Below are positions 1 to 43,314 of a DNA stretch of 43,314 nucleotides, piece by piece. The translations under genes and the position numbers were made by a program. Under the pieces are notes generated by a model. That model saw nothing but the letters and a program-made list of their open reading frames with translations. It did not search any database and was not told the DNA's origin. Location: positions 1 to 43,314 of IMG/VR virus record IMGVR_UViG_2713897325_000001, one strand, 5' to 3'. Numbering within the stretch: position 1 is the first letter of the stretch; the number at the start of each line of letters is the position of its first letter. The stretch comes from a virus.

Positions 1-276
1 GTGGCCAAGGGCTTTGTAAAGGTCCTTGCGGATCTGCAGAGCGCTGGATTTGTGGACGGTCGCAGTCATGCCGAGCGAATGCTCGATCTGATCGAGGCTG
101 CGCTCGAAAAGCGTATTCCCAAGGATCAGCAGAGTTACGAAATTGACGGCATGCGCCTCGACCGTATTCCGATCGAGCGTCTCGAGGCCCTGCGCACGCG
201 TTACCGCCGAGAGGTGGCCAGCGCCAGACGTAAGGGCTCGCCGTTCGGTCGCTATATTCGCGTGAGGTTACGGTAA
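1..276 (+). CDS. gpW-like head-tail joining (head completion) protein, possibly 5'-truncated by the window edge
   Basis: Stop TAA 274-276 overlaps the portal ATG (TAATG). The segment SYEIDGMRLDRIPIERLEALRTRYRRE plus the basic tail fits the lambda gpW family pattern. It lies directly upstream of a lambda-family portal, as W-B does in lambda. The ORF begins at base 1 (GTG), so the true start is uncertain. Confidence 0.6.
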   Translation: MAKGFVKVLADLQSAGFVDGRSHAERMLDLIEAALEKRIPKDQQSYEIDGMRLDRIPIERLEALRTRYRREVASARRKGSPFGRYIRVRLR

Positions 277-1817
277 TGGGGTTTTTCAGTGCTTTGCTGG
301 GCCTGCGCGTGCGGCCTGCGGCTGCAGCGCCGCGCGCAGAGCCAGCCCTTGGCCTTGACGTCGCGGCTTCACCTGGTCGGCAACGATCGTTTCAGATGGC
401 ACGCCACGGGCGGTTAACGTCGAGCTGGACGGGCCGCACCGCTTACGGTGATGCAAACCAACAGATTTACGCTGACCACGTTGCATTGACGGCCAGAGCT
501 CGCGAGCAGTCGATTAACAACGGCTACGCCAAGCGTTTTTACCGCCTGCTAAAGCAGAACATCGTCGGTTCGAAGGGCGTTCAGCTCATGTCGAAAGCCG
601 TATTGCCTGACGGCAAGCCTGACAGGGCGACCCGTCGCCTGATCGAGCTCGAGTTCTGGAAGTGGTGCAAGCGCGGCAATTGCGACGTGACGAGAAAGCT
701 GTCGTTCTGGATGTTCCAGCGGTTATGGGTCGAGACTTTGGCCCGTGACGGTGAGGTCATGGTCAGGATCGTTCGCAACTTTCCGAACCGCTGGGGGTTT
801 GCGCTGCAGATCCTTGAGGTTGATCGGCTCGACATTACGCTCAATCAAGAGCTGAGCAATGGCAATCGGGTGCGGATGGGTGTCGAGTTCGATGCCTGGG
901 AGGCGCCTGTCGCTTACTGGCTGCTCAAGGCCCATCCGGGCGACGTCTGGCAGAGCCGCGCGGAAGAAAAATACGACCGCATTCCGGTCGGGGAATTGCG
1001 CCATAGTTTCGACCCTTGGCGCCCGCATCAGGCTCGGGGGTTCACTTGGACGCACGCCTCGGCGCTGGAGCTGCATCACCTGGGCGAATACCGCAATTCT
1101 GAAATGGTTGCGGCCGAGCAGGGCGCGAAGATTACCGGCGTTTACGAGCAGGATGCAGAGTTCGTCGAAGACCCCGGCGCTGACGGGGATGACGGCGAGC
1201 TCGACGAAGTCGTCGAGGCTGGTAGCAACAAGCTGTTGCCCTACGGCGTCAAGTGGAAGCCTTACACCAACACGCACCCATCATCGAACTTTGCGCCGTT
1301 TACGAAGGCTGGTCTGCGCGGCGTAGCTGCCGGTTTCGGGCCTAGTTACAACAAGCTTGCGCACGATCTTGAGGGCGTCAGCTTCTCGTCGATGCGTTCA
1401 GGCGAGCTCGACGATCGCGACTTCTACAAGGACGGTCAGCAACTTCTGATCGATGAGCTGCTCGAGCTCGTCGGGGAAACCTGGCTCGATATGGCGCTGC
1501 TCAAGGGAGTGATCAAGCTTCCGCCGCGCAACTTCCATCTGTACGGCGACCTTGAATGGGCGCCCCGCGGTTGGGACTGGGTGGACCCGACAAAGGACTC
1601 CAAAGCGGCAACAGAGTCGATTGCCAACCGCACCAAAACGCGCGGCGACTACATCCGGCAGACCGGCCGAGATCCCGACGAGGTATTTGCCGAAATGGCA
1701 GAGGAAGAGGCGCGCTTGCGCGAACTCGGCCTGTCGTTCAACGCACCTCCGACGGTCGCGCAAGCCCAGCCCCAAACGGACGAAAAAGATGACGATAAAG
1801 ACGAAGACGCCGACTGA
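276..1817 (+). CDS. Phage portal protein, lambda (gpB) family
   Basis: 513-aa ORF with the size, position and sequence pattern of lambda-family portals (REQSINNGYAKRFYRLLKQNIVGSKG...) and an acidic C-terminal tail. It is followed by a protease-capsid gene. Confidence 0.88.
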   Translation: MGFFSALLGLRVRPAAAAPRAEPALGLDVAASPGRQRSFQMARHGRLTSSWTGRTAYGDANQQIYADHVALTARAREQSINNGYAKRFYRLLKQNIVGSKGVQLMSKAVLPDGKPDRATRRLIELEFWKWCKRGNCDVTRKLSFWMFQRLWVETLARDGEVMVRIVRNFPNRWGFALQILEVDRLDITLNQELSNGNRVRMGVEFDAWEAPVAYWLLKAHPGDVWQSRAEEKYDRIPVGELRHSFDPWRPHQARGFTWTHASALELHHLGEYRNSEMVAAEQGAKITGVYEQDAEFVEDPGADGDDGELDEVVEAGSNKLLPYGVKWKPYTNTHPSSNFAPFTKAGLRGVAAGFGPSYNKLAHDLEGVSFSSMRSGELDDRDFYKDGQQLLIDELLELVGETWLDMALLKGVIKLPPRNFHLYGDLEWAPRGWDWVDPTKDSKAATESIANRTKTRGDYIRQTGRDPDEVFAEMAEEEARLRELGLSFNAPPTVAQAQPQTDEKDDDKDEDAD

Positions 1818-3648
1818 CCCGGCGCCTGACTTCCTGCGCGAGATCGGAGGAAAAACCCTGCAGCGTGCAATGGCCGTGGACCTCTCGACACTCAATGTCG
1901 AGGCCCGGACTGTTGAGGTTGCGGTTTCCAGCGAATACCCGGTCAGGCGCTGGTTCGGTATGGAGATCCTCGACCACTCGACAGAGTCGGTAATGCTGGA
2001 TCGCCTCAACTCTGGCGCACCGCTGCTCGACATGCACGACCGTTGGGGTCAGATCGGCGTTGTAGAAAGGGCCTGGCTCGACGATGACCGAAAGTTGCGT
2101 GCCCTTGTGCGCTTCTCCAAGGGTCAAGGCGCCAGTGAGGTTTGGGAGGACGTTGTCGACGGTATTCGCAGGAATATCTCAGTCGGCTATGACCCTCAGG
2201 ACGCCCAGCTCGAGCGCACCGAGGGTGATCTCAAGTACTACCGCATCACCCGGTGGGAGCCCTGCGAGGTTTCCATCGTTTCAATCCCGGCTGACCCGAC
2301 TGTCGGGGTGGGCCGCTCTTTACCCGAAAACATTGTGAGCGAGCCCGCTCTTCAAGGACCTGTAATGTCGAAAGAAAACACCACTGTTGTACCTGATGCT
2401 GCAGTAATCATCGCCGCCGAACGTCAGCGCTCGGCGGACATCATGTCGCTTTGCGAGCGTCACGGCGTTGCACCGCTGGCTCAGTCCTCGATCAATGAGG
2501 GTCTGACTGTTGATCAGGTGCGCGCCAAGATCCTCGACGGTATCAACCCGAGCGCGACCCCGCGCGGCCCTGAAAACGAGCAGCGTAGCGGCGACCTGCC
2601 AAAATTCACCATTGACGTGTCTGCGCGTGGCCTGGGCTTGAACGCGAAAGAACAAGGCAGTTATTCGTTGATGCGAGCGCTCAATGCGTCCGCCAATGGT
2701 GACTGGAAAGACGCGGGCCTCGAGCGCGAGGTGTCGATCGCCATCGCCACTAGCCTGGGCAAGGAAGCGCGCGGCATCTATGTGCCTCATGACTTGCTCG
2801 CCCAGCGCGCAGGCATGACAAACACGCCTGGTGCAGGTGCAGAGCTGGTTTCTACCGATCTGCGCACCGATCAGTTCGTCGACATGGTTCGTAATAAGGC
2901 GGTGTTCGGCGCATTGGGTGCTCGCATCTTGGGCGGCCTGCAGGGCGACGTCGATATCCCGAAGAAAGTGGCTGGCGCCAATTTCTACTGGATCGCTGAA
3001 AACGGTACGGTCCAGCTCTCGAAAATGGACCTGACCACGCTGAACCTGAAAAACCGCACCATTGCCGGCGCGATTCCGGTGTCTCGCAAGCTGCGCAAGC
3101 AAAGTTCGATGAGCATCGAGCAGTTGATCGTTTCTGACCTGGTCAACGGTATCGCGGTTGCGCTCGACTACGCCGGCCTGTACGGCACTGGTGAGGATAA
3201 CCAGCCGCTGGGTCTGTTCAATCAGACAGGCGTGCCTGCGATTCCATACGGCGCATCGGGTATCACCTTCGGCGAACTGGTCGACATGGAAACGAAGGTT
3301 GCGACCTTCAATGCCGACGTCGGTGCGCTCAAGTACCTGACCAGCGTTACCCAGCGCGGCTATGCGAAAAAGACCAAGGAAGACCCGGACGGCGCGGACT
3401 CCACGAAAATCTGGCTGCGCAACGAGGTCAACGGCGCACCGGCTCTGGCATCCAATCAGGTCAAGGATGGTCAGTGGGCTTTCGGCGACTGGTCGCAAGC
3501 CATGATCGGCATGTGGGGTGCGCTGGATCTCAAGCCCGACCCTTACGCGATGGCTGATAGCGACGGCCTGGTCGTTCGTGTGTTCCAGGACGCTGACTTC
3601 GGTTTCCGTAACCTGAGCAGCTTCTGCATCGCCCGTAAAACCGGTTAA
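1789..3648 (+). CDS. Prohead protease (HK97/S78-like) fused to HK97-fold major capsid protein
   Basis: The open frame runs 1552..3648. I chose ATG 1789 (MTIKTKTP...) because it overlaps the portal end by only 29 nt. The N-terminal ~190 aa (RTVEVAVSSEYPVRRW...ISVGY...CEVSIVSIPADP) looks like an HK97-family prohead protease. The C-terminal ~400 aa (YSLMRAL...GAELVSTDL...IPVSRKL...LDYAGLYGTG) looks like an HK97-family major capsid protein. An in-frame internal ATG at 2365 carries an AAGGA Shine-Dalgarno. Confidence 0.8.
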   Translation: MTIKTKTPTDPAPDFLREIGGKTLQRAMAVDLSTLNVEARTVEVAVSSEYPVRRWFGMEILDHSTESVMLDRLNSGAPLLDMHDRWGQIGVVERAWLDDDRKLRALVRFSKGQGASEVWEDVVDGIRRNISVGYDPQDAQLERTEGDLKYYRITRWEPCEVSIVSIPADPTVGVGRSLPENIVSEPALQGPVMSKENTTVVPDAAVIIAAERQRSADIMSLCERHGVAPLAQSSINEGLTVDQVRAKILDGINPSATPRGPENEQRSGDLPKFTIDVSARGLGLNAKEQGSYSLMRALNASANGDWKDAGLEREVSIAIATSLGKEARGIYVPHDLLAQRAGMTNTPGAGAELVSTDLRTDQFVDMVRNKAVFGALGARILGGLQGDVDIPKKVAGANFYWIAENGTVQLSKMDLTTLNLKNRTIAGAIPVSRKLRKQSSMSIEQLIVSDLVNGIAVALDYAGLYGTGEDNQPLGLFNQTGVPAIPYGASGITFGELVDMETKVATFNADVGALKYLTSVTQRGYAKKTKEDPDGADSTKIWLRNEVNGAPALASNQVKDGQWAFGDWSQAMIGMWGALDLKPDPYAMADSDGLVVRVFQDADFGFRNLSSFCIARKTG

Positions 3649-3672
3649 AGCGAACCTTAGCGGGCAGGTGCT

Positions 3673-3696
3673 GGGGGCTTAGGCCCCCTTTTTTAT
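3673..3696 (+). terminator. Rho-independent terminator after the capsid gene
   Basis: GGGGGC-ttag-GCCCCC stem-loop followed by TTTTTTATT. Confidence 0.75.
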
Positions 3697-3719
3697 TCAC
3701 TAAATTCTGAGGTGATCAG

Positions 3720-4154
3720 ATGAGCGATTTGGTTTTGGCAGTGGGGTTTTTAGTCGTAGCCCTGCATGAATTCTGGCGCAAGGGTGAGGCCGATGCTGTG
3801 TCGGTCGGTGAGATTATCGAGGTCACTCGCGCCGAGCGTAACAGTCTTGTTTCGAGCCACGTTGCCCGTGACGCGACCGACGCTGAGATCGCCGAGTTTC
3901 GCGGTACTCCATTGCCTGACGAGGTGTTGCCCGATGCAGGCGAAGCAATTGCAGCCCTCGAGACTGCGCAAGCCGAACTCAAGGCGGTGGAAACTGAGCG
4001 CGATACGCTGCAGGGTCAGGTTCAGTCGCTCACTGCCGAAAAGGACGACTTGAGCAAGGCGGTCAGCGAATTCAGCGATGAAATCGACAATCTCAAGGCT
4101 GCAAACGCCGTCCAGGCGAAAGCGCTCGAGGCCAAGAAAGCAGCCGCGAAATGA
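3720..4154 (+). CDS. Hypothetical protein with a hydrophobic N-terminus and a long coiled-coil
   Basis: GAGGTG Shine-Dalgarno about 6 nt upstream of the ATG. 144 aa: N-terminal LVLAVGFLVVAL, then heptad-like AELKAVETERDTLQGQVQSLTAEKDDL and an Ala/Lys-rich tail. Stop overlaps the next start (ATGA). Confidence 0.6.
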   Translation: MSDLVLAVGFLVVALHEFWRKGEADAVSVGEIIEVTRAERNSLVSSHVARDATDAEIAEFRGTPLPDEVLPDAGEAIAALETAQAELKAVETERDTLQGQVQSLTAEKDDLSKAVSEFSDEIDNLKAANAVQAKALEAKKAAAK

Positions 4155-4534
4155 TCGGTGACGACGACTTCGAGTCGTTCTATGACCCTGACGAATTCGG
4201 CGGGGTTGTGACCGTTCATGAGCAGGGGAAGGCGCCGCGCGACGTGCCTGGCATCTTCGGCAAGCCTGTGGCCCGTGGTGGTGTGTTCCGGGCAGGTATC
4301 GACCCTGGCGCTGCTCAGGTGCGTGCTGCGCCGGATCAGTTGCAGTTTCAAATGGCGAACAGTTCCGTGCCTAAGCCGTTCCTGTCGGTCAAGGTGGTGG
4401 CCAACGGAAAGGCCTATCTGATAGCAGACGTTGAGCCTCTCGGCCGGTTTCGGTCGTTGGTCACGATGACGCCGGACGGCGGTCGGGCCGGCTCCGATAG
4501 TGGGGAGCTCGGGAAATGGGCGGTTTTGAGCTGA
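4151..4534 (+). CDS. Head-tail joining protein, lambda FII-like
   Basis: 127 aa. The pattern FESFYDPDEFG..VTV...G...DVPGIFGKP.......P.......D.......V..NGKAYLIADVEP.G....LV parallels lambda gpFII. It sits between the capsid gene and a Z-like gene, as in lambda. Confidence 0.55.
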   Translation: MIGDDDFESFYDPDEFGGVVTVHEQGKAPRDVPGIFGKPVARGGVFRAGIDPGAAQVRAAPDQLQFQMANSSVPKPFLSVKVVANGKAYLIADVEPLGRFRSLVTMTPDGGRAGSDSGELGKWAVLS

Positions 4535-5040
4535 GGTTTCCAACCAGTGGCTGGGCAGAAGTTGAGGCAATGGTTGCCAAGGCCCCAAAGCTGCTGGATC
4601 TGGCGGCAGCCAGGGCGCTACGCAAAACAGCGCAATGGTTGCGGACTCACAGCTCGCGCGAGATCGCGAAAGAGTTGAAGATCACGCAAAGCCCGCTGCG
4701 CCATCGCTACAACGTTTACAGCCAATCCACGGCCGGCGAGGTAAAGCTCTGGGTAGGTTTGCAGCCGCTTAGTGTTCACTGGCTCGGCAAGCCTAAAGCA
4801 ACCTCGACCGGCGTCTCGGTTGGCCATCGCGAATACGCCGACGCGTTTATCTCGCCAATGAAGACCAAGCATCAGCTCGTTTTTCGGCGCAAAGGGCGCG
4901 AGCGACTTCCTGTCGAGCTGGTTCGTGAGGACTGGGCCGACGAGGGTATCGGCGCGCTTGAGCGCTGGGAAAAGCGTGCGATGCAGCGTTTCGTCGAAAT
5001 TTTTGAAAGTGAGGCTTCGAATGTCTTTGCGTCCGCTTGA
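4516..5040 (+). CDS. Tail completion protein, lambda gpZ-like (minor tail Z family)
   Basis: 174 aa. The layout AAARALRKTAQWLRTHSSREIAKELKI...VKLWVGLQPLSV..LGK...GVSVG...ADAFI...VFRRKGRERLPVELV parallels lambda gpZ. The gene order FII-Z is conserved. Confidence 0.5.
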   Translation: MGGFELRFPTSGWAEVEAMVAKAPKLLDLAAARALRKTAQWLRTHSSREIAKELKITQSPLRHRYNVYSQSTAGEVKLWVGLQPLSVHWLGKPKATSTGVSVGHREYADAFISPMKTKHQLVFRRKGRERLPVELVREDWADEGIGALERWEKRAMQRFVEIFESEASNVFASA

Positions 5041-5530
5041 TAAGGTTTCAGACCTGTTTTTTGCGATCGGTGATGCGATACAGGCTGCGCGCCTTGGTGT
5101 TTCAGTGGGCAACTACGACGACTTCGAGGGCTTGATCGGTGATGCGCAGGTGCTGATCGAGTTTGAACGCACCTCGCCGGGTTCGCGCAACAACGACGGC
5201 AAGCTTGTACACACCGTTACCGTGACGCTGCATGCAGTGGTGTCGCGGGCGCGCAAGTTTTCCTCTATCGAGGCTGCCAACTTGACCACTGTCCTCGAGC
5301 GCCTGGCCACCGATAACCGCTGGGGTTTCGGTCGGCATGCGGATATCCCGCAAAACATGCGCTCGGGGCCTTCGATTTTTCAGAGAGGCGCAAAGGGGTA
5401 CGACGCTTGGGGCTGCACTTTCGTGCAAAGCCTGGCTATCGGTCCTGAACGCCCTATGCCTGACCCTGGCACCGGCCGTCGTCCGCCTGTGGGCGATGAC
5501 GAGCCTATGATCTGGCAGGTTAACCCGTAG
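5021..5530 (+). CDS. Hypothetical virion (neck or tail-completion) protein
   Basis: The open frame starts at 4925. I chose ATG 5021 (MSLRPLDK...) because it overlaps the previous gene by only 20 nt. It is co-oriented within the morphogenesis operon. No family was recognised. Confidence 0.55.
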   Translation: MSLRPLDKVSDLFFAIGDAIQAARLGVSVGNYDDFEGLIGDAQVLIEFERTSPGSRNNDGKLVHTVTVTLHAVVSRARKFSSIEAANLTTVLERLATDNRWGFGRHADIPQNMRSGPSIFQRGAKGYDAWGCTFVQSLAIGPERPMPDPGTGRRPPVGDDEPMIWQVNP

Positions 5531-5538
5531 GAGCGCCC

Positions 5539-6159
5539 ATGTTTCTCGCATTCGTTCGCAACATGCTCGAGCCGTATCGTGAGCAGCTCGCGGCGCTTGA
5601 AACGGCCGTCGATGATCTGCGGCGCCGCGCCGAAAATCAGGGTCGCATGGGGGTGGTTCATGAGGTCGACGCACCTGGTGGCCTGGTCAAGATCAAGCAC
5701 GGCGACAATGTGACGCCGTGGATCAAGGTCATGCAGCCAGCGTCGGGCGACATTCGCGAAACGCGCGTGCCTACGGTTGGCGAGCAATCGCTTCTGGTGA
5801 ACTACGGCGGCGGGGATGGCAGCGCGCACTCGATCGCGCTTTGCGGCCTCGCCTCAAATACGTTCCCCCCGGTGTCTGATCGTGCCGAGCTGCATCGACG
5901 GGTTTACCCGGACGGGACCGAGCAGAGTTATGACCACGCAAGCCACGCCCTGGACTGGAAAAACGGCCCGACGACCGTGAAGGCGGATCAGTCGAGCATC
6001 GAGCTGATGTGCGGTGCGTCTGGCATCAAGATCGACGCTGCAGGCGTTCAACTGATCGGCCTGAAAGTCAGGCACAACGATGTCAGCATCGGCCTTGATC
6101 ACACGCATGACGACACGGCTCCGCTGGCGGGCGCCAAGTCAGGGTTGGTGACGCCGTGA
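5539..6159 (+). CDS. Baseplate assembly protein V (P2 gpV-like spike/hub)
   Basis: AGGAGC Shine-Dalgarno. Contains RMGVVHEVDAPGGLVKIKHGDNVTPWIKVMQPASGDIRETRVPTVGEQSLLVNYGGGD, typical of the gpV family. Followed by W, J and I homologues in P2 order. Confidence 0.88.
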   Translation: MFLAFVRNMLEPYREQLAALETAVDDLRRRAENQGRMGVVHEVDAPGGLVKIKHGDNVTPWIKVMQPASGDIRETRVPTVGEQSLLVNYGGGDGSAHSIALCGLASNTFPPVSDRAELHRRVYPDGTEQSYDHASHALDWKNGPTTVKADQSSIELMCGASGIKIDAAGVQLIGLKVRHNDVSIGLDHTHDDTAPLAGAKSGLVTP

Positions 6160-6488
6160 TCGGCATCAATGGAAGCACTTTTGAGACGGTGGACGATTGG
6201 GGCCAGTTCGTGCAGCGCGCCGCACGGGCGCTGACAACCCCGATCGGCACCCGTCAGAAACGGCCGCTGTATGGCTGCAAGGCCACGACACGGCTCTCGG
6301 CCAATATGAACGACTCGCTGCTGATCCTTATTCAATCGGACTGCGCCGAGGCGTTTTACAACGCTGCCAATGGTATTGACGACTTTGTGCCTGGAACCGT
6401 GCTCGCCCAGCGAGGCGAACAGGGCGTCGTCGTTCGCCTGGCCGGTGTTTGGAATAACCGCAAAATGACCTTTGAGGTGCAGTTGTGA
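6156..6488 (+). CDS. Baseplate protein W (P2 gpW / T4 gp25 family)
   Basis: 110 aa. The pattern VQRAARALTTPIGTRQKRPLYGC fits GPW/gp25. Start and stop are both coupled to neighbouring genes. Confidence 0.85.
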   Translation: MIGINGSTFETVDDWGQFVQRAARALTTPIGTRQKRPLYGCKATTRLSANMNDSLLILIQSDCAEAFYNAANGIDDFVPGTVLAQRGEQGVVVRLAGVWNNRKMTFEVQL

Positions 6489-7483
6489 CAACCATGCTCA
6501 TACCTGGCCTCAATCAATTGGCCGAGCCTGAAATCGTTAAGGTTGAGGATTACGAGGCGCTGCTCGCTGAATTCAAGGCTGAGCTCGTTTCGTATGTTCA
6601 GCCCCGTGATCCAGAAATGGCGGCCCGTGTCGCTGTTGCCATCGAAAACAGTAGCGAGCTCGCTACGTTGATGATGGAAGTGTTCACCGTTCGCCTGCAG
6701 ACGCACGAACGTAAATACAACACCCGCATAAAGCAAATGCTTGCATGGTGGGCAACCGGCTCGAACCTCGGCGCGCGAGCTGCAGACATGGGCCTCGAGC
6801 GCAGGGTCATATCAGAAGGCGACCCGAGCGCGTTCCCGGTTGTTCCGCCCGTCGAGGAAAGCGACGAAGAGTTACGGTTGCGTTACTACATTGCGCCCCA
6901 TGCGCCGGCAGCAGGTTCTCGCCTGCAGTACCGGCGCGAGGCGCTGACGCTCGGTGAGCGCGCTACGGTGTCCGTTGAGGCGCCAGAGCCCGGAAAAGTC
7001 GTGGTGACGTACACGTTCGGATCTGATGCGTTCGCGGCCAAGGTCAAGGACGCAAACGGTCGTCGAACTGGACCGGGGCAGGTGGCCGTAACGGTCCTCG
7101 GCCGCGAAGGGGACGGCACGCCGAGCGAGGATCTGCTCAATGCAACCCGCGCGCACTTTGCCCGCGACGACGTAAGGCCTGAGACGGATCTCGTTACGGT
7201 GCAGGGCGCGCAGATCGTGCGCTACAAGATCCGGGCTATTGCCTACATCAATGCCGGGCCTGACTCAGGCCTGACAAAGACGGCTGCAGAGGCCGCCATG
7301 CGCGCCTACGCGACGTCACGACACCGACTTGAGGGCTACGTCGATCCGGCATGGATTGACGCAGGACTGATCTCTGCCGGGGCCGAGCGCCTTACCCGGA
7401 TCGAGCCTTTGGCGCCGATTGAGTGTGCAGCGCATCAGGCGCCGTACTGTGAGTCTGTCGAGGTCGAGGTTAGGGTCTTATGA
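6485..7483 (+). CDS. Baseplate protein J (P2 gpJ family)
   Basis: 332 aa with a Baseplate_J-like sequence, in the P2 order V-W-J-I. Start and stop overlap the neighbouring genes. Confidence 0.85.
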   Translation: MTTMLIPGLNQLAEPEIVKVEDYEALLAEFKAELVSYVQPRDPEMAARVAVAIENSSELATLMMEVFTVRLQTHERKYNTRIKQMLAWWATGSNLGARAADMGLERRVISEGDPSAFPVVPPVEESDEELRLRYYIAPHAPAAGSRLQYRREALTLGERATVSVEAPEPGKVVVTYTFGSDAFAAKVKDANGRRTGPGQVAVTVLGREGDGTPSEDLLNATRAHFARDDVRPETDLVTVQGAQIVRYKIRAIAYINAGPDSGLTKTAAEAAMRAYATSRHRLEGYVDPAWIDAGLISAGAERLTRIEPLAPIECAAHQAPYCESVEVEVRVL

Positions 7484-8100
7484 CTGATTACACGGTGCTG
7501 CCGCCAAATGCTTCTGTCGTGGAGCGCGGCCTCGATCTGGCGTTTGGCAGGCTGCTCGACCGGATAGAGCCGCCGTTCCCCGATCTGATGGACCCACTTA
7601 AAACCCCGGTTGATTTTCTGCCCTACCTGGCTGCTGATCGCGGCGTAACGGAATGGAATAGCGCGGCGCCCGAGGCTGAGAAGCGGCTCACGGTCGCGCT
7701 GGCCTGGCCGACCAAGCGCCTGGCCGGCACGCGCAGGGCGCTCGAGAACGCGATTCTTGGGTTGCAACTGACGCCCGATGTAACCGCCTGGTATGAGCAG
7801 ACGCCCCTCGGTCAGCCGTACACATTTACCGTTCGTGCGTTCGCCGATAAGCCGTACAGCGAAGAGATCAACGCGCGGCTTGATCGGCGGATTGGTGAGG
7901 CGAAAAGCGAAAGGGACGTGCTTGCGGTTTCAATCGGTTTAAGCGTCTCCGGGACTCATTACGTAGGCGCCGCGACGGTAGGCGGCGAGCTAACCACAAT
8001 CTATCCGTTTGAGCTTGAAGGGCTCGATGTGTCGTCGCCTCTGTACATGGCTGCTGGCCTGTATTCGGTTGAAAAGACAACCCTTCGTCCGCTGGAGTGA
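7480..8100 (+). CDS. Tail protein I (P2 gpI family)
   Basis: The N-terminus VLPPNASVVERGLDLAFGRLL...LMDPLKTPVDFLPYLAADRGV..W matches the P2 gpI signature. Confidence 0.85.
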   Translation: MTDYTVLPPNASVVERGLDLAFGRLLDRIEPPFPDLMDPLKTPVDFLPYLAADRGVTEWNSAAPEAEKRLTVALAWPTKRLAGTRRALENAILGLQLTPDVTAWYEQTPLGQPYTFTVRAFADKPYSEEINARLDRRIGEAKSERDVLAVSIGLSVSGTHYVGAATVGGELTTIYPFELEGLDVSSPLYMAAGLYSVEKTTLRPLE

Positions 8101-10367
8101 ACATGTCTGAATTTTACACGCTGTTAACCAATGGCGGCCTCGCATACGAGACGCTGTGCAAGGCCAACGGAACGCCTATCAAGCTGACGCATCTATCCGT
8201 CGGCGACGGCGGCGGTTCGGTGTACAACCCGGATGCCACGGCCAAGGCATTGCGCCGCGAGGTATGGCGTGGCCCGATCAATGCCCTGATGCAGGATGCC
8301 AAAAACCCGAGCTGGCTGGTGGCTGAGCAGACGCTGCCGGACGACGTCGGTGGCTGGTACGTGCGCGAGGCCGGTATCTGGACTGATACGGGCATTCTCT
8401 ATGCGGTGATCAAGTACCCGGAGTCCTTCAAGCCGGTTATCAGCTCGGGGTCTGGAAAAGAGTTTTACCTGCGGGCCATTTTTGAAACCAGCAACGCCGC
8501 CAACGTCGTGCTGGCGATCGATGACACGATCGTTAAGGCGACGCGAGCATGGGTTGTCGACTACGTGGCCAACGAGCTGGCCAGGCTGGATGCAAAGAAG
8601 TCAGTTCGGGCGGCTACTACCGGCCCTATTGTTCTGAGCGGTGCGCAGACGGTCGACGGCGTTCCGGTTGTTGCCGGTGACAGCGTCGGTGTTTTCTTCC
8701 AGGCAAACGCAGCCGCCAATGGTATTTATGTCGTGGCGAACGGTGCCTGGTCGCGCCGCTCTGACGCGGATCTGAGCGTCGAGGTAACGCCTAACCTGCT
8801 GGTCAGTGTCGAGGAAGGTGCCAAGTACGCCGATACGCTCTGGCAGTTGACGACGAATGCGCCGATTGTCTTGGACACTACAGCGCTCGCCTTCGAGCAG
8901 ATCGCCGGGCCGAACGGTGTTCTGCCTGGCTCGTATCGTCAAGTTACGGTGGATCGTCGAGGCCTGGTGGTTGCGGGTTTCAACCCGACCACGCTGGGCG
9001 GGTACGGCATCGCCGATGCTTACAGCAAGAGCGAGATCGATGCGCGGGTCGGGACGCTGCAGGCCAAGCTTGGCTTTACTCCCGTGCAGCAGGGCACCGG
9101 CACGGGCCAGTTGAACAACCTGATTAAGATCGGCTGGTCAGGGGGTGCGATCAAGGCGACCGTAGATAACTCCGACATGGGGAATCTTTGGTACTCGGGT
9201 AACTTTGACCCGGCCACAAAGGCGAACGTTGGTAGCACGTTGTTTGCCTACGGAATCACCGATGCCTATACCAAGGCAGAAACCGATGCACGAGATGCGG
9301 CTCGCCCACTTGCGGACAGCATTACGAATATAGGGTTTGCGGGTAATGACCCGGCTTCGCCTTATATGCGACGCACCGCTGATAACGCTGTGTACCTGCT
9401 ACAGTCAAAACTGCAATACACGCCTGTTCAGCAAGGAACTGGAATAGGTCAACTTTCGAACGTTATTAAGATCGGATATTCGCAGCCGGGTAAGGTCAAG
9501 TTAACGGTCGATAATTCCGACTTCGGAACAATCTGGACGTCCGGGAACTTTGACCCTGAGTCAAAGGCGAACGTCGGCACCACGCTATTCTCTTATGGCA
9601 TTGTTGATGCTTACACGAAAGGTGATGTTTATACCAAGGCAGAAACCGATGCGCGAGACGCGGCTCGCCCGCTTGCAGACAGCATCACGCATGTCGGGTT
9701 TGCAGCTAACGATCCTACCCAGCCTTACATGCGGCGCGCCAATGACGCAACCGTGTACTTTCTGCAGTCGAGACTTCCGTACACGCCTGTGCAGCAGGGG
9801 ACCGGCGCAGGACAGACGAGCAACCTTGTCAAAATAGGGTGGTCGTCGGGCGGGCTAAAGGCTGCTGTCGATAACACCGATTTGGGCACGCTCTGGTATT
9901 CGGGAAACTTCGACCCGACCAAAAAGGCGAACGTCGGTACTACGTTGTTTTCTTACGGCATTACCGATGCGTATACCAAGAGTGAAACCGATGCTCGGGT
10001 TAACTCTCGCCCTATTGCTGACTCAATAACGCATGTTGGCCTTGCCGCTAATGACATTACTGCGCCTTATCTTCGGCGTGCGTCCGATGCTGCGGTTTAT
10101 TTTTTGGTCAGTGATCTGAACCTTGGGCAAAAGATTGCGAACTTGGGCCTTACTGGCGTTGGGCAATATGCGTTTGCGCGAGTAATTAACGCATACGGAA
10201 ACTCGATTAACCAAGGCACGTCAGTACCGGGCTCTAACCTTCTTTTCAGCTCTACTGCTGTAGGCGACGGCACAAGCGGTAACTCGGGCACTATCGGTAT
10301 AGGTGTTTGGCGCGCCCAAGGTGCTTTTAACAATACAGAGCGCACGCTCTTTCAACGAATCCAGTAG
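8097..10367 (+). CDS. Tail fibre protein (P2 gpH-like N-terminus, repeat-containing shaft)
   Basis: The N-terminal ~120 aa (SEFYTLLTNGGLAYE...KLTHLSVGDGGG...WYVREAGIWTDTGILYAV) is the conserved baseplate-attachment domain of P2-type fibres. Start is GTG 8097 (GTGA overlap with gpI) or ATG 8103. Confidence 0.88.
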   Translation: MNMSEFYTLLTNGGLAYETLCKANGTPIKLTHLSVGDGGGSVYNPDATAKALRREVWRGPINALMQDAKNPSWLVAEQTLPDDVGGWYVREAGIWTDTGILYAVIKYPESFKPVISSGSGKEFYLRAIFETSNAANVVLAIDDTIVKATRAWVVDYVANELARLDAKKSVRAATTGPIVLSGAQTVDGVPVVAGDSVGVFFQANAAANGIYVVANGAWSRRSDADLSVEVTPNLLVSVEEGAKYADTLWQLTTNAPIVLDTTALAFEQIAGPNGVLPGSYRQVTVDRRGLVVAGFNPTTLGGYGIADAYSKSEIDARVGTLQAKLGFTPVQQGTGTGQLNNLIKIGWSGGAIKATVDNSDMGNLWYSGNFDPATKANVGSTLFAYGITDAYTKAETDARDAARPLADSITNIGFAGNDPASPYMRRTADNAVYLLQSKLQYTPVQQGTGIGQLSNVIKIGYSQPGKVKLTVDNSDFGTIWTSGNFDPESKANVGTTLFSYGIVDAYTKGDVYTKAETDARDAARPLADSITHVGFAANDPTQPYMRRANDATVYFLQSRLPYTPVQQGTGAGQTSNLVKIGWSSGGLKAAVDNTDLGTLWYSGNFDPTKKANVGTTLFSYGITDAYTKSETDARVNSRPIADSITHVGLAANDITAPYLRRASDAAVYFLVSDLNLGQKIANLGLTGVGQYAFARVINAYGNSINQGTSVPGSNLLFSSTAVGDGTSGNSGTIGIGVWRAQGAFNNTERTLFQRIQ
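8991..10121 (+). repeat. Three and a half tandem ~114-121-aa repeats inside the tail fibre gene
   Basis: The unit TPVQQGTG.GQ.sN.IKIGws.g..K..VDNsD.G.lWySGNFDP..KANVG.TLF.YGI.DAYTK.ETDAR...RP.ADSIT..G.A.ND...PY.RR..D..VY.L starts at fibre residues 328, 442 and 563. A partial copy lies at about residue 299. The DNA copies have diverged. Confidence 0.85.
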
Positions 10368-10375
10368 GTTAAAAC

Positions 10376-10912
10376 ATGTCCAAAGTATTAAGCGCTCGCA
10401 ACCCGCACTGGTCGACCCCGGCTCGCACTACCATCGAACTGATGGTGGCTTTCGAGGGGATGGTCGACGTTTATGGTGAATTGCCGTTCACGGCATCCCC
10501 TCACGACCCCGAGGCGCACGGCGTTGATCTGTACGAGCGAGCCCTTGCGGGTGAGTTCGGGCCGGTTCAAGACACGCCGCTTGAGCTGGTGCGCGTGCAG
10601 GTCATGTGCGCGCGCGGCGACCGCTCTGCGGCGGCGACCGCTCGCATTGATGCGCTGGTCAATCAGTACGAGGAGCTGCTCGACGCCGTAGCGCTGAATA
10701 TGGCGACCGATGCCCAGCTCGCGGCCATGCCTGCGCTCAAGGCTGAGATCGACGCACAGCGTCTGTATCGCGTGCAGCTCGGCCAGCTCGACACGAAGCC
10801 TGGCTACCCGCTGGAATTCGAATGGCCGGTGCCGCCTGCCGTTCCGTTCGTGTACGAACCGCCAGCGCCTGAAACTGCTGCAGAGACCGGCGAAACCGAG
10901 CAGAAAAAGTAA
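10376..10912 (+). CDS. Tail fibre assembly chaperone (P2 gpG-like)
   Basis: 178 aa immediately downstream of the fibre gene. The C-terminal segment LAAMPALKAEIDAQRLYRVQLGQLDTKPGYPLEFEWPVPP fits the W..YR..L......WP..P pattern of tail-fibre assembly proteins. Confidence 0.75.
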   Translation: MSKVLSARNPHWSTPARTTIELMVAFEGMVDVYGELPFTASPHDPEAHGVDLYERALAGEFGPVQDTPLELVRVQVMCARGDRSAAATARIDALVNQYEELLDAVALNMATDAQLAAMPALKAEIDAQRLYRVQLGQLDTKPGYPLEFEWPVPPAVPFVYEPPAPETAAETGETEQKK

Positions 10913-10945
10913 CCGCTTCGCCCCCTTCATCTGACAACCCCCAAG

Positions 10946-10967
10946 AGCCGCACTGCGGCTTTTTTTG
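10946..10967 (+). terminator. Rho-independent terminator after the fibre module
   Basis: AGCCGCA-c-TGCGGCT stem followed by TTTTTTGT. Confidence 0.7.
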
Positions 10968-10985
10968 TGCCTGGAGATTCACGCA

Positions 10986-11198
10986 ATGGCCGACACCCTG
11001 CGCCAGAAATACACCGTATTGGTTCCGTTCCCGAAAGGCGGTGGCCACTACTCCCGCAAAGGCGAGGAGCTCGAGCTCCTCGACGTTCAAGCGCAGCAGC
11101 TCGAGGCCGCTGGCCGTATCAAGCTGACTGCTGAGATCGCCGCCGAGGCCGCGTCTGCTGCTCAGACGGCCAAGAAACCCACTGTAAAGGCTGACTAA
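10986..11198 (+). CDS. Small hypothetical protein preceding the sheath gene
   Basis: ATG 10986 with a GGAG about 10 nt upstream; the track's 10965 start is a GTG inside the terminator T-tract. 70 aa. It occupies the position of the small gp38-like (DUF2635-type) proteins that precede sheath genes in some myoviruses, but that similarity is weak. Confidence 0.5.
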   Translation: MADTLRQKYTVLVPFPKGGGHYSRKGEELELLDVQAQQLEAAGRIKLTAEIAAEAASAAQTAKKPTVKAD

Positions 11199-11201
11199 GC
11201 A

Positions 11202-12371
11202 ATGGCAGAAGTAACGAATTTCGAGCACAACGGCGTCACGTTCAATATCACCGAGTCGCCGGACCCTATGGGCGCTCTCGGCCAGAACGTAATTGGCCTG
11301 GTAGGCACTGCGCCAAACGCCGGTCTGGGCATTCCGCTCAATTCCCCGTTTCGCATCAGCAGTGACGGCGCGGCCAACCTGCTGGACCCTACGGGCACCG
11401 AGGCCGGTACGCTGTATCTGGTCGTGAAAAACATCCTCAAGGTCGTGAAGTGCCCGATCTACGTCGTTGTCGTCGAGAAGGGCGCTACGGCGGCCGACAC
11501 GCTCAACAATGTGTTGGGCGGCGTAGACGTGGCGTCGGGTCAGATCACGGGTATCGCGGCGCTGGCTACCGCGCCCGAGGTGCCGACGATCATCGGTGCG
11601 CCTGGCTTCTCGGATCAGCAGGCGGTTTACAGCGAGTTGGCCAGCTTGGCCAAGCGCATCTTTTGCCGCGCGGTCTGTGACGGCAAGGACGTAACCGTTG
11701 CTGATCAGGTCAAGAACAGCCAGGCAATCGGTGGTGCTGACGTCGGCTATGACCGCTGCTACTTCGTTCACCAGATGCCCGCCGTTTATTCGAAGGCGGC
11801 AAAAGGGAACGTATTCCTGCCGCCGTCGAGCCTGGCTATCGCGGCGCTGGCCGCCGTTAAGCCGTGGGAGAGCCCCGGCAATCAGGTCACCTACGCTGCG
11901 GACGTCTCGCGCGTCGTCGAGTACAACATTCTCGACAAGGCTACCGAAGGCGACCTGCTGAACCGCTACGGCTTCGGCTATTACGCGCGCACCACGATGG
12001 GCGGTTTCTCCCTGATCGGTAACCGAACCATTACCGGCAAGTTCATCAGTTACGTCGGGCTCGAGGATGCGCTCGCCCGTAAGTTGATGGCCGCTGCGCA
12101 GATCGTCATGTCGCGCAACCTGACCATGTCGTTCATGAAACAGGAAGTCGAAAAAATCGACGCCTGGCTGCAGACGCTGGTCGCTGACGAAACCATTCCG
12201 GGCGGCAGCGTGTACCTCGATCCCGATTTGAACAGTGCTGAGCACTACAAAAACGGCACCTGGTACATCGTGGTCGACTACGGCCGCTACGCCCCGAACG
12301 AGCACATGGTCTACAAGCTGAACGCTAGTGACTCGATCATCGAAGAATTCCTGAACGAGGTGTTGAAGTAA
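11202..12371 (+). CDS. Contractile tail sheath protein (P2 FI family)
   Basis: 389 aa with a typical FI-like N-terminus (GV.FN..ES......G..VIGLVGTAP) and C-terminal domain, followed by a coupled tube gene. Confidence 0.9.
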   Translation: MAEVTNFEHNGVTFNITESPDPMGALGQNVIGLVGTAPNAGLGIPLNSPFRISSDGAANLLDPTGTEAGTLYLVVKNILKVVKCPIYVVVVEKGATAADTLNNVLGGVDVASGQITGIAALATAPEVPTIIGAPGFSDQQAVYSELASLAKRIFCRAVCDGKDVTVADQVKNSQAIGGADVGYDRCYFVHQMPAVYSKAAKGNVFLPPSSLAIAALAAVKPWESPGNQVTYAADVSRVVEYNILDKATEGDLLNRYGFGYYARTTMGGFSLIGNRTITGKFISYVGLEDALARKLMAAAQIVMSRNLTMSFMKQEVEKIDAWLQTLVADETIPGGSVYLDPDLNSAEHYKNGTWYIVVDYGRYAPNEHMVYKLNASDSIIEEFLNEVLK

Positions 12372-12877
12372 TGTTTACGAACCGTGTAAGGCAGGTTATT
12401 ACCGCCACGCTCCAGGGTTTCCCGCTGATGGCCACCATCGACGAGTTTGATCCGCCTCCGATCGAATTCGAAATGGAAGGCATGCGCGGCGGCCGCTTTC
12501 TCGAGGAAGAGCAGGCGACCGGCATGAAGGCCATGACGGCGAAGATCACGCTGCAGGGCGTTGGTCTGCCGATCTTTCTGGCGATGGGCGCGACGCAGGG
12601 TCAGACGGTGTCTCTGACGGTCAACGAGGCCGGTGTCGATCAGGACGATAACGAGTGGTTCGCGAACCATATCTGCATCGGCAAGCTGAAAAAGATCGAA
12701 GAGAAAACGGTCAAAATGAAAGACAAGCCGGTCACCGTTATGGAGATCGCGCTGCGCATCTACAAGCGCCTTGAGTCGGGCGTTACCGTTGTCGATGTTG
12801 ATACCCGCACACAGCGAATCATCATCAACGGCGACGACATTCTGAAAGGCTCTCGCCGCTTGGCCCTGATGGCCTAA
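12371..12877 (+). CDS. Tail tube protein (P2 FII family)
   Basis: 168 aa with a TAATG start overlap with the sheath gene. Segments FDPPPIEFEMEGMRGGRF, LQGVG and VDVDTRTQRIIINGDD parallel P2 FII. Confidence 0.88.
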   Translation: MFTNRVRQVITATLQGFPLMATIDEFDPPPIEFEMEGMRGGRFLEEEQATGMKAMTAKITLQGVGLPIFLAMGATQGQTVSLTVNEAGVDQDDNEWFANHICIGKLKKIEEKTVKMKDKPVTVMEIALRIYKRLESGVTVVDVDTRTQRIIINGDDILKGSRRLALMA

Positions 12878-12892
12878 CCGCCCCACTTTTAA

Positions 12893-12917
12893 AGCCGCCT
12901 CCGGGCGGCTTTTTGTT
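12893..12917 (+). terminator. Rho-independent terminator after the tube gene
   Basis: AGCCGCC-tccg-GGCGGCT stem followed by TTTTGTTG. Confidence 0.7.
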
Positions 12918-12934
12918 GCTCAAGGAAAAGTAAA

Positions 12935-13555
12935 ATGACCGCTCCGACTACCAAAAAGCCCCGCGCCAAAAGCCGCAAGCCTTGGGTAATGCCCACGCAT
13001 AAGCTGTGCTTTCCGATCACTGTCGACGCCGACGAAGGCGGCGAGTCGACGATCACTGAGATCGTGCTGCGCCCTTTCAGCGTGATCGAGCACCGCAAGG
13101 CGCTGGCCACGGTGAGCGATGACGTCGAGGCGCAGTTTGAGGCCCTTCTCGCACTGGCTACCGGCTATGACGAGGACGTGATCGACAAGATCAAGCGGCC
13201 TGACTTCGTGTCCCTCGGCGCGATCCTGAACGACTACATCAAGCTTCCCGCAAGTTTCTATCTGGAACGGTTGCCAGAAGATCCAGACGTCGTACCGTTG
13301 CTGGTTCCGATAAAGGGTGTGATGGGTCAGATCACCAGTTTGACGCTCGAGGTTCCGGCGCTCAAAGCGACGAAGATCATGCAGAAAATGAAGGGTGATT
13401 ATGAGCCTGCCGACTTCATCAGCGCGCACTGTGCCGGCCTGAGCGTGACCGAGATCCACATGCTGAGCTGCCCGGACTGGACGCAGCTACAGGAACGGGT
13501 GGACAGTTTTTTAAACAAACCGGCGGACTACTTTCAGACCGCGACATCGAAGTAA
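12935..13555 (+). CDS. Tail assembly chaperone (P2 gpE-like), apparently two tandem chaperone domains
   Basis: AAGGAAAAG Shine-Dalgarno. It lies between the tube and tape-measure genes. The two halves (about residues 20-105 and 115-195) both follow the gpE-type pattern (short beta segment ITEIVLRP / ITSLTLEVP ... tG....i..l...D......f). Confidence 0.75.
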   Translation: MTAPTTKKPRAKSRKPWVMPTHKLCFPITVDADEGGESTITEIVLRPFSVIEHRKALATVSDDVEAQFEALLALATGYDEDVIDKIKRPDFVSLGAILNDYIKLPASFYLERLPEDPDVVPLLVPIKGVMGQITSLTLEVPALKATKIMQKMKGDYEPADFISAHCAGLSVTEIHMLSCPDWTQLQERVDSFLNKPADYFQTATSK

Positions 13556-13677: not shown

Positions 13678-13687
13678 GGGGTGAGCT

Positions 13688-17591: not shown

Positions 17592-17601
17592 TGGGGGAGT
17601 T

Positions 17602-21196: not shown

Positions 21197-21226
21197 GATT
21201 GAGGCCTCGCAGTGATTGAGAGCGTG

Positions 21227-21255
21227 AATATACGTACAAATGTACCTTTGTACAA
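21227..21255 (-). promoter_or_regulatory. Putative sigma70 promoter of the parA operon
   Basis: Read on the coding strand: TTGTAC, a 17-nt spacer, then TATATT, about 30 nt upstream of the parA ATG. Confidence 0.55.
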
Positions 21256-38294: not shown

Positions 38295-38799
38295 TCGAAG
38301 CCTCACTTTCAAAAATTTCGACGAAACGCTGCATCGCACGCTTTTCCCAGCGCTCAAGCGCGCCGATACCCTCGTCGGCCCAGTCCTCACGAACCAGCTC
38401 GACAGGAAGTCGCTCGCGCCCTTTGCGCCGAAAAACGAGCTGATGCTTGGTCTTCATTGGCGAGATAAACGCGTCGGCGTATTCGCGATGGCCAACCGAG
38501 ACGCCGGTCGAGGTTGCTTTAGGCTTGCCGAGCCAGTGAACACTAAGCGGCTGCAAACCTACCCAGAGCTTTACCTCGCCGGCCGTGGATTGGCTGTAAA
38601 CGTTGTAGCGATGGCGCAGCGGGCTTTGCGTGATCTTCAACTCTTTCGCGATCTCGCGCGAGCTGTGAGTCCGCAACCATTGCGCTGTTTTGCGTAGCGC
38701 CCTGGCTGCCGCCAGATCCAGCAGCTTTGGGGCCTTGGCAACCATTGCCTCAACTTCTGCCCAGCCACTGGTTGGAAACCTCAGCTCAAAACCGCCCAT
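38275..38799 (-). CDS. Tail completion protein, gpZ-like (arm 2 copy)
   Basis: Exact mirror of 4516..5040. Confidence 0.5.
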   Translation of the reverse strand: MGGFELRFPTSGWAEVEAMVAKAPKLLDLAAARALRKTAQWLRTHSSREIAKELKITQSPLRHRYNVYSQSTAGEVKLWVGLQPLSVHWLGKPKATSTGVSVGHREYADAFISPMKTKHQLVFRRKGRERLPVELVREDWADEGIGALERWEKRAMQRFVEIFESEASNVFASA

Positions 38800-41526: not shown

Positions 41527-43039
41527 CTTTTTCGTCCGTTTGGGGCTGGGCTTGCGCGACCGTCGGAGGTGCGTTGAACGACAGGCCGAGTTCGCGCAAG
41601 CGCGCCTCTTCCTCTGCCATTTCGGCAAATACCTCGTCGGGATCTCGGCCGGTCTGCCGGATGTAGTCGCCGCGCGTTTTGGTGCGGTTGGCAATCGACT
41701 CTGTTGCCGCTTTGGAGTCCTTTGTCGGGTCCACCCAGTCCCAACCGCGGGGCGCCCATTCAAGGTCGCCGTACAGATGGAAGTTGCGCGGCGGAAGCTT
41801 GATCACTCCCTTGAGCAGCGCCATATCGAGCCAGGTTTCCCCGACGAGCTCGAGCAGCTCATCGATCAGAAGTTGCTGACCGTCCTTGTAGAAGTCGCGA
41901 TCGTCGAGCTCGCCTGAACGCATCGACGAGAAGCTGACGCCCTCAAGATCGTGCGCAAGCTTGTTGTAACTAGGCCCGAAACCGGCAGCTACGCCGCGCA
42001 GACCAGCCTTCGTAAACGGCGCAAAGTTCGATGATGGGTGCGTGTTGGTGTAAGGCTTCCACTTGACGCCGTAGGGCAACAGCTTGTTGCTACCAGCCTC
42101 GACGACTTCGTCGAGCTCGCCGTCATCCCCGTCAGCGCCGGGGTCTTCGACGAACTCTGCATCCTGCTCGTAAACGCCGGTAATCTTCGCGCCCTGCTCG
42201 GCCGCAACCATTTCAGAATTGCGGTATTCGCCCAGGTGATGCAGCTCCAGCGCCGAGGCGTGCGTCCAAGTGAACCCCCGAGCCTGATGCGGGCGCCAAG
42301 GGTCGAAACTATGGCGCAATTCCCCGACCGGAATGCGGTCGTATTTTTCTTCCGCGCGGCTCTGCCAGACGTCGCCCGGATGGGCCTTGAGCAGCCAGTA
42401 AGCGACAGGCGCCTCCCAGGCATCGAACTCGACACCCATCCGCACCCGATTGCCATTGCTCAGCTCTTGATTGAGCGTAATGTCGAGCCGATCAACCTCA
42501 AGGATCTGCAGCGCAAACCCCCAGCGGTTCGGAAAGTTGCGAACGATCCTGACCATGACCTCACCGTCACGGGCCAAAGTCTCGACCCATAACCGCTGGA
42601 ACATCCAGAACGACAGCTTTCTCGTCACGTCGCAATTGCCGCGCTTGCACCACTTCCAGAACTCGAGCTCGATCAGGCGACGGGTCGCCCTGTCAGGCTT
42701 GCCGTCAGGCAATACGGCTTTCGACATGAGCTGAACGCCCTTCGAACCGACGATGTTCTGCTTTAGCAGGCGGTAAAAACGCTTGGCGTAGCCGTTGTTA
42801 ATCGACTGCTCGCGAGCTCTGGCCGTCAATGCAACGTGGTCAGCGTAAATCTGTTGGTTTGCATCACCGTAAGCGGTGCGGCCCGTCCAGCTCGACGTTA
42901 ACCGCCCGTGGCGTGCCATCTGAAACGATCGTTGCCGACCAGGTGAAGCCGCGACGTCAAGGCCAAGGGCTGGCTCTGCGCGCGGCGCTGCAGCCGCAGG
43001 CCGCACGCGCAGGCCCAGCAAAGCACTGAAAAACCCCAT
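41498..43039 (-). CDS. Portal protein, lambda family (arm 2 copy)
   Basis: Exact mirror of 276..1817. Confidence 0.88.
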   Translation of the reverse strand: MGFFSALLGLRVRPAAAAPRAEPALGLDVAASPGRQRSFQMARHGRLTSSWTGRTAYGDANQQIYADHVALTARAREQSINNGYAKRFYRLLKQNIVGSKGVQLMSKAVLPDGKPDRATRRLIELEFWKWCKRGNCDVTRKLSFWMFQRLWVETLARDGEVMVRIVRNFPNRWGFALQILEVDRLDITLNQELSNGNRVRMGVEFDAWEAPVAYWLLKAHPGDVWQSRAEEKYDRIPVGELRHSFDPWRPHQARGFTWTHASALELHHLGEYRNSEMVAAEQGAKITGVYEQDAEFVEDPGADGDDGELDEVVEAGSNKLLPYGVKWKPYTNTHPSSNFAPFTKAGLRGVAAGFGPSYNKLAHDLEGVSFSSMRSGELDDRDFYKDGQQLLIDELLELVGETWLDMALLKGVIKLPPRNFHLYGDLEWAPRGWDWVDPTKDSKAATESIANRTKTRGDYIRQTGRDPDEVFAEMAEEEARLRELGLSFNAPPTVAQAQPQTDEKDDDKDEDAD

Positions 43040-43314
43040 TACCGTAACCTCACGCGAATATAGCGACCGAACGGCGAGCCCTTACGTCTGGCGCTGGCCA
43101 CCTCTCGGCGGTAACGCGTGCGCAGGGCCTCGAGACGCTCGATCGGAATACGGTCGAGGCGCATGCCGTCAATTTCGTAACTCTGCTGATCCTTGGGAAT
43201 ACGCTTTTCGAGCGCAGCCTCGATCAGATCGAGCATTCGCTCGGCATGACTGCGACCGTCCACAAATCCAGCGCTCTGCAGATCCGCAAGGACCTTTACA
43301 AAGCCCTTGGCCAC
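43039..43314 (-). CDS. gpW-like head-tail joining protein, possibly truncated by the window edge (arm 2 copy)
   Basis: Exact mirror of 1..276. Confidence 0.6.
   Translation of the reverse strand: MAKGFVKVLADLQSAGFVDGRSHAERMLDLIEAALEKRIPKDQQSYEIDGMRLDRIPIERLEALRTRYRREVASARRKGSPFGRYIRVRLR

Follow-up and report, generated by a model that had tools for sequence, protein, structure and literature searches.

Telomere phages, whose prophages are linear plasmids closed at each end by a covalent hairpin telomere, are the closest described systems to the DNA analysed here, a 43,314-nt stretch that comprises positions 1 to 43,314 of IMG/VR virus record IMGVR_UViG_2713897325_000001 and is referred to below as the window. 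Known members are N15, PY54, phiKO2, VP882 and phiHAP-1, and the nearest of the characterised ones are phiHAP-1 of Halomonas and VP882 of Vibrio, which are isolated myovirus-type telomere phages of the genus Hapunavirus. Their genes run from head-tail joining to gpD, followed by methylase or cargo genes, a parA gene that reads back toward them, the tel site and a protelomerase gene that reads away on the other side. The phiHAP-1 record has an annotated repeat region between ParA and the protelomerase gene, with a RepA gene in the opposite orientation beyond the latter. HMP1, a close relative of phiHAP-1, is a linear plasmid according to restriction analysis and has an inverted repeat between parA and telN (PMC9170930).

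The same local order occurs in the Escherichia phage N15, in which the protelomerase TelN acts on the telRL site. In the N15 record (NC_001901), ParB and ParA genes read away from one side of a 56-bp inverted repeat that is cut at 24802/3, the protelomerase gene reads away from the other side, and ParA lies 487 nt from the cut. N15 replication yields telRR and telLL sites, which are the TelN substrate, and degenerate L1-L3 and R1-R3 repeats around telO are thought to recruit extra TelN (PMC12624138). Closed telomeres also leave a mark on sequence assemblies: in Borrelia long-read assemblies, terminal inverse duplications of 5-18 kb mark hairpin telomeres and are trimmed at the inversion point (bioRxiv 10.1101/2025.07.18.665644). 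Pseudomonas telomere phages have already been reported, but were mentioned only in passing (PMC12042878). Telomere phages, tel sites and read-around palindromes are all known already, and the window presents no new genome architecture. We think it likely that the window shows, in sequence form, a single covalently closed hairpin end of such a linear plasmid-prophage, and the element is most likely a P2-tailed, hapunavirus-like (phiHAP-1/VP882-type) telomere phage with a Pseudomonas host.

A perfect palindrome centred on a tel site

An earlier note on this DNA, made from its sequence alone, described the whole window as a perfect palindrome without divergence between the arms and put the axis between C21657 and G21658. 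Both claims hold: the window aligned with its own reverse complement has 0 mismatches at any position and gives the same axis. Base counts (A = T = 8662, G = C = 12995) agree with full self-complementarity, and GC skew and AT skew are mirror images about the axis. A perfect palindrome of 43 kb is beyond chance. Unique sequence therein amounts to 21,657 bp only and the remainder is its mirror, which is either the complementary strand, read past a hairpin turn, or one graph edge followed a second time in reverse. Window position 1 is an assembly break within a gene rather than a biological end.

The contig needs to be halved before downstream use because each gene is now counted twice. An inverted-terminal-repeat caller would score it as a complete 43-kb genome, whereas it truly represents about 57% of a genome of about 38 kb. 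The arms and the features that surround the axis are as follows.

1 to 21657, plus strand: unique arm, read as the virion-structural and partition half of a linear phage-plasmid up to the probable hairpin tip.
21658 to 43314, minus strand: mirror arm, the exact reverse complement of 1-21657, without independent information.
21645 to 21670, no strand: tel core, a 26-bp perfect palindrome, CCCCATTCTATAC/GTATAGAATGGGG (here and below a slash marks the axis), with the putative hairpin turn or resolution centre at 21657/21658.
21630 to 21640, mirrored at 21675-21685, no strand: palindromic box GTGCATGCAC, identified in an alignment of 30 sites.
21546 to 21636, mirrored at 21679-21769, three copies on the minus strand and one on the plus strand: 16-nt motif GGGNNNNGGNTGNATG in an array of four, spaced 23-28 nt apart.
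21197 to 21300, no strand: region upstream of parA with TGTAC-rich inverted repeats that are nearly identical in the P. aeruginosa record described below.
20549 to 21196, minus strand: ParA partition ATPase (Pfam AAA_31, CbiA and MipZ).
20241 to 20552, minus strand: ParB-like partition partner of 103 amino acids, assigned by its place directly downstream of parA, which is kept in all relatives.

The axis was also said to fall in a short AT-rich palindrome within a non-coding, repeat-rich region next to a plasmid partition cassette, and each element of that description is borne out. The innermost part of the tel core reads TATAC/GTATA, the 461 nt from the ParA start codon (21196) to the axis are non-coding and repeat-rich, and the ParA and ParB-like genes adjoin this stretch. 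The 103-amino-acid ParB-like protein has no Pfam match, and the window ParA is 92-94% identical to ParA of related elements. In computed folding, a single strand of 21540-21775 forms a perfect hairpin that has ACGT (4 nt) at its tip.

Between their ParA and Tel genes, phiHAP-1 and VP882 have CCCATACTATAC/GTATAGTATGGG, which differs from the window core by one change per half-site; the window core has T instead of A at position -7. Matches to the window half-core in register are 11/13 for phiHAP-1 and VP882 and 9/13 for N15 telRL (N15 sequence from PMC10100719), and phiHAP-1 matches at 21/28 positions over a longer stretch. The window core is thus a tel site homologous to those of known telomere phages, beside a partition operon with parA reading away from it. 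N15 is alike in local order, in the distance from ParA to the axis (487 nt against 461 nt in the window), in having CCCATT at the same register from the axis and in the degenerate repeats that flank its core (PMC12624138). It differs in being a lambda-like siphovirus and in its core centre, which is CGCG, whereas that of the window is AC/GT. Its protelomerase is only distantly related to the protelomerase (Tel) of the Pseudomonas relatives described below: Pseudomonas Tel matches only five Escherichia phage records, none of them named among the matches listed, and enterobacterial matches cover 55-64% of the query at about 33% identity.

The window telomere is ParA-proximal and, in N15 terms, is best read as telR. 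The earlier note had the N15 sop partition genes abutting telL; this has to be corrected to telR, because the ntelR oligonucleotide (PMC12624138) corresponds to the left, sop-proximal half of telRL in NC_001901.

Outside the core, the palindromic box reads GGTGTATACACC in relatives and is separated from the core by a variable spacer of 4-6 nt. The subterminal repeats were detected by repeat finding combined with pattern searching; they are degenerate and alternate in orientation, and Tandem Repeats Finder reported no array near the axis. The window has 8 matches to the 16-nt motif against a chance expectation of 0.05, and none lies further than 111 nt from the axis, although this statistic is inflated because the motif was derived from the window itself. 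Independent support comes from its occurrence in relatives: the records of P. corrugata, P. aeruginosa and phiHAP-1 have it beside telomeres only. By analogy with the N15 L1-L3 and R1-R3 repeats, the 16-nt repeats are candidate accessory protelomerase binding sites. Directly upstream of parA, TGTAC-rich inverted repeats (GTACAAATGTACCTTTGTACAA ... CAAAGGTACAA) within 21230-21280, mirrored at 22035-22085, may be a parA operator or centromere.

Pseudomonas plasmids read around their telomeres

A megablast search of the arm against 50,697 phage records gave no match. Matches were obtained in the plasmid collection only, to three Pseudomonas "plasmids": pPcorr-B21-055 (NZ_CP102178.1), pSTW0522-72-1 (NZ_AP022474.1) and pPHPALO418 (CP075795.1). 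They have 75-78% nucleotide identity to the arm over parts of it, 92-93% identity in ParA and about 50-93% in the arm proteins. In all three, the tail-to-ParA arm ends within a few hundred bases of the record end. Their protelomerase is closest to those of phiHAP-1 (56%) and VP882 (48%).

The P. corrugata record NZ_CP102178.1 (75,476 bp, deposited as circular) is a perfect palindromic circle of 2 x 37,738 bp with 0 mismatches. It has one ParA-proximal axis and a second axis flanked by two copies of an annotated telomere resolvase that stand head to head, with an N15-type RepA gene beside each copy; the resolvase has the Pfam domains ResT-TelK catalytic, stirrup and TelK_N. The P. monteilii record NZ_AP022474.1 (79,236 bp) has the same organization except for indels of 1-2 bp, which make it a near-perfect palindrome. 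These indels between the arms split RepA into two coding sequences in one arm only. Both records were retrieved by similarity to the arm and not through the core, and the same 26-bp core is present at all four of their axes. Reading round both closed ends makes a linear duplex appear as a double-length "circle", and the two records are linear hairpin replicons of 37,738 and about 39,618 bp in which both closed ends were read around.

The P. aeruginosa record CP075795.1 was deposited as a 38,390-bp circle with a junction, GGGTGTATA/TATACACCC, at 38300-38330, which is without the inner ~42 bp of the tel palindrome. The palindrome looks to have been collapsed. A "hypothetical protein" at 198-1799 of this record, which adjoins the junction, has 72% identity to the telomere resolvase of P. 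corrugata. Two RefSeq "circular plasmids" are, then, double-length palindromic images of linear hairpin replicons, and the third apparently combines a collapsed tel palindrome with an unannotated protelomerase.

These Pseudomonas phage-plasmids resemble the window in their identical 26-bp core and subterminal architecture, and the first two also in being read around, at both ends in their case. They differ in being complete (37.7-39.6 kb of unique sequence), in carrying Tel and RepA and in having been deposited as circular, whereas the window is a partial contig that is wrapped round its ParA-proximal end only.

Tel sites in related contigs

The exact 26-mer core was found in 25 loci, 13 of them viral, 3 from genomes (Pseudomonas sp. 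286, Pseudomonas sp. HS-2 and Stutzerimonas kunmingensis) and 9 from metagenomes. Conservation of the core among these loci is circular, since they were retrieved with the exact 26-mer, and weight is put on relatives found otherwise. The loci are informative about arrangement. In nine contigs the core is internal, between diverging parA and protelomerase genes, with symmetry that extends only 13-37 bp per side; this is the uncut, telRL-type form. Four complete contigs of 36-39 kb have the core 14-73 nt from both ends, one of which is ParA-proximal and the other Tel-proximal.

Relatives were also retrieved independently of the core, via the tail sheath, which gave 56 of them. The core lies 446-462 nt from the ParA start in all seven of these loci that reach that far, compared to 461 nt in the window; another 20 loci with ParA end short of the axis, and none has a different sequence there. 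The 56 were also searched for a genome close enough to the window's element to complete its missing half, but none exceeded 81% sheath identity. An exact look-up of the window ParA protein gave no record, and no sequence identical to the window was present in the viral, genome or metagenome collections.

A short-read metagenome contig, Ga0247725_1000346, bears directly on how such ends are sequenced. Its ParA-end overhang mirrors its own arm for 63 nt, which reaches 26 nt beyond the 37-nt palindrome common to both ends. Because the mirror exceeds the shared palindrome, fold-back molecules at the telomere of this family were really sequenced. The Tel end of the same contig has the overhang of an uncut telRL-type junction, which implies that the sample held both resolved and unresolved (or virion) forms.

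An identical core recurs in elements with protelomerases that have only 54-81% identity to the P. corrugata enzyme, and it is the spacer and the flanking boxes that vary. This pattern hints that the elements share a catalytic-core site and differ in its flanks, and it suggests cross-recognition between co-resident telomere phages. In the Pseudomonas/Stutzerimonas telomere phage family, which is represented by about 80 loci in the searched collections and has 36-40 kb genomes, the tip and tel architecture is now fixed to the base and consists of the 26-bp core, a spacer of variable length, the palindromic box and the 16-nt repeat array.

Individual records in the survey deserve mention in their own right. 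The closest match to the flank of the window telomere is UWFA01000197.1 (Pseudomonas sp. 286), a 294-nt contig that is nearly identical over ~75 nt and ends 26 nt past the axis; it points to a Pseudomonas host with a very similar element whose telomere was assembled as an orphan fragment. In ML178810.1, a Pseudomonas sp. HS-2 scaffold, the tel core is abutted by a run of N, and the RepA C-terminus occurs twice in direct orientation, ~4 kb apart. IMGVR_UViG_3300044878_000188, in which the tel site is internal, is 50,880 bp long, well above the 36-40 kb of the family. For both records, faulty scaffolding or a contig that exceeds one genome length is a possible cause.

Origin of the palindrome

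A hairpin telomere would account for the window as follows. After infection or replication, protelomerase would cut the tel palindrome between parA and the protelomerase gene, and each tel half would be resealed as a hairpin. The resulting prophage would be linear and double-stranded, with about 460 bp between parA and one hairpin and about 200-250 bp between the protelomerase gene and the other. Reading toward the ParA-proximal tip would carry on round the turn onto the complementary strand, and an assembler would emit the arm followed by its reverse complement, that is, a perfect palindrome centred on the tel site. Some 16-18 kb, with the terminase, lysis, Q, repressor, RepA and protelomerase genes, would lie outside the contig. 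Physical closure of the end as a hairpin and protelomerase action at the window site are both inferred. A comparable wraparound occurs in Borrelia, where the contig passes the closed telomere and continues as its reverse complement for kilobases, and the inversion point is the true end; Borrelia differs in replicon and resolvase (ResT), and its duplication covers a terminal segment only, whereas that of the window spans the whole contig.

Several observations weigh against this interpretation. The window has no homologue of protelomerase or RepA, even at E <= 10. The contig stops 21.7 kb from the axis, and complete relatives carry Tel at the other end of the molecule or just across an uncut site, with RepA adjoining Tel in all of them; both genes are probably present in the window's own element, as judged from these relatives only. 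At both outer ends of the window, which lie inside a gene, the mirroring is exact to the base; this shows that the contig owes its symmetry to the assembler, which wrote one edge forward and then in reverse. Its long second arm is consequently not independent evidence of reads that continue far past the turn. Among about 80 related short-read contigs, fold-back never exceeds 63 nt, so the window is an unusual assembler outcome.

The strongest competing explanation, which we regard as unlikely, is a replicated-telomere junction in which two telR ends stand head to head, in a circular head-to-head dimer or a partly replicated molecule, before resolution by protelomerase. The sequence of a telR-telR junction is identical to that of a telR hairpin read around, and all sequence results fit both equally. 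The earlier note preferred a hairpin or a replicated junction to a random artefact, and that preference is strengthened by the coincidence of the axis with the tel centre of protelomerase-encoding relatives, but sequence cannot separate one from the other. A junction has a known counterpart in N15, where telRR and telLL replication products serve as the TelN substrate; in N15-type prophages, however, the junction is transient and the hairpin is the steady state (PMC12624138). One Borrelia study had no Illumina coverage across hairpin tips and, if this is general, short reads that cross an axis would come from duplex junctions. On the other side, the long-read assemblies of two relatives wrap both ends into one double-length circle, as is expected for a hairpin-capped monomer, although a circular dimer would give the same result.

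Next comes a fold-back artefact seeded by the palindrome of an uncut telRL site, in virion or circularised DNA, such that no hairpin molecule was sequenced; we hold this to be improbable. It could arise if a graph assembler whose k-mer did not span the palindrome of 58-74 bp went on along the reverse complement of the arm by which it had entered, or through polymerase snap-back in amplification. The base-exact mirroring of outer ends that lie inside a gene, with 0 mismatches over 21.7 kb, is what one graph edge traversed twice would give. The two ends of relatives share a palindrome of 14-37 nt per half, which is ambiguous at common k values, and the uncut telRL state is present in many samples. 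Even so, the axis of an artefact seeded at tel would coincide with a real tel site of a telomere phage, and the sampled state would change but the biology would not. Fold-back beyond the shared palindrome in the short-read contig of a relative, together with wrap-around at both ends in two isolates, shows that genuine read-around is common in this family, which counts against such an artefact. Of the artefact proposed as an option in the earlier note, only this narrower, tel-seeded version keeps any plausibility, the version with a random breakpoint being excluded.

We give little credence to the idea that the 43-kb palindrome is itself a real molecule, either an accumulating, unresolved telR-telR species or a defective giant-palindrome derivative of the structural and partition arm. 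An unresolved species could accumulate in an element or host state in which protelomerase resolution is limiting, and on this idea the contig would be a replication intermediate captured in nature rather than a hairpin read around.

We reject a random chimeric fold-back (an inverted chimera from multiple displacement amplification or long reads), and likewise an inverted duplication that evolved with no relation to telomeres. Libraries are known to yield inverted chimeras, and perfectly identical arms would suit an artefact, but the axis is the base-exact centre of the tel palindrome of the family, a coincidence with a random chance of about 1 in 20,000 that excludes a random fold-back breakpoint, and an evolved duplication would be expected to have a spacer or divergence, neither of which is present in the window.

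Gene content of the arm

The hairpin telomere that we favour would cap an arm with the genes of a P2-type tail. Besides the partition genes listed above, the arm contains the following.

1 to 276, plus strand: head-tail joining protein gene, of which the C-terminal 91 codons remain, truncated at the contig end, with 63-65% identity to the C-terminal part of phiHAP-1 gp03 homologues.
276 to 18615, plus strand: structural operon, identified by Pfam matches and synteny with annotated records.
19099 to 20076, minus strand: C-5 cytosine DNA methyltransferase (Pfam PF00145, E = 3e-36).

The full-length head-tail joining gene is 516 nt in phiHAP-1. The structural operon encodes a lambda-family portal, an S78 protease-capsid fusion, baseplate proteins V, W, J and I, a tail-collar fibre, sheath, tube, assembly chaperone, tape measure, gpU, gpX and gpD. 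Past gpD, minus-strand genes encode a small membrane protein, the C-5 cytosine methyltransferase, the 103-amino-acid ParB-like protein and ParA. Collinear phiHAP-1 homologues exist for 20 of the 24 window open reading frames (ORFs), at 29-63% amino acid identity, and the gene order of the arm is that of phiHAP-1. The arm as a whole is collinear with phiHAP-1, at 35-63% identity for arm proteins, and with the three Pseudomonas elements. The window thus has a collinear hapunavirus-like structural module of the phiHAP-1/VP882 group. In contrast to phiHAP-1 and VP882, the probable host clade is Pseudomonas/Stutzerimonas (60% G+C), and the window has the C-5 methylase and a distinct tail-fibre module and contains only one arm, written twice.

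The C-5 methylase has no match in phiHAP-1 or the three Pseudomonas records, and is a cargo gene without counterpart in the relatives compared. A 178-amino-acid ORF that follows the tail fibre (region 8097-10912, plus strand) also has no counterpart in these four records. The tail fibre itself, a 756-amino-acid protein in the same region and on the same strand, matches the P. corrugata record only, over 42% of its length; by eye, it has three to four internal repeats of ~100 amino acids (GNFDP...KANVG.TLF.YGI.DAYTK.ETDAR). The methylase, the 178-amino-acid ORF and the tail fibre look like variable cargo and host-range modules. The tape measure protein (13688-17002, plus strand, 1104 amino acids) has a long central region of low complexity that is rich in Ala, Pro and Gly, and only about 54% of it aligns with homologues in relatives.

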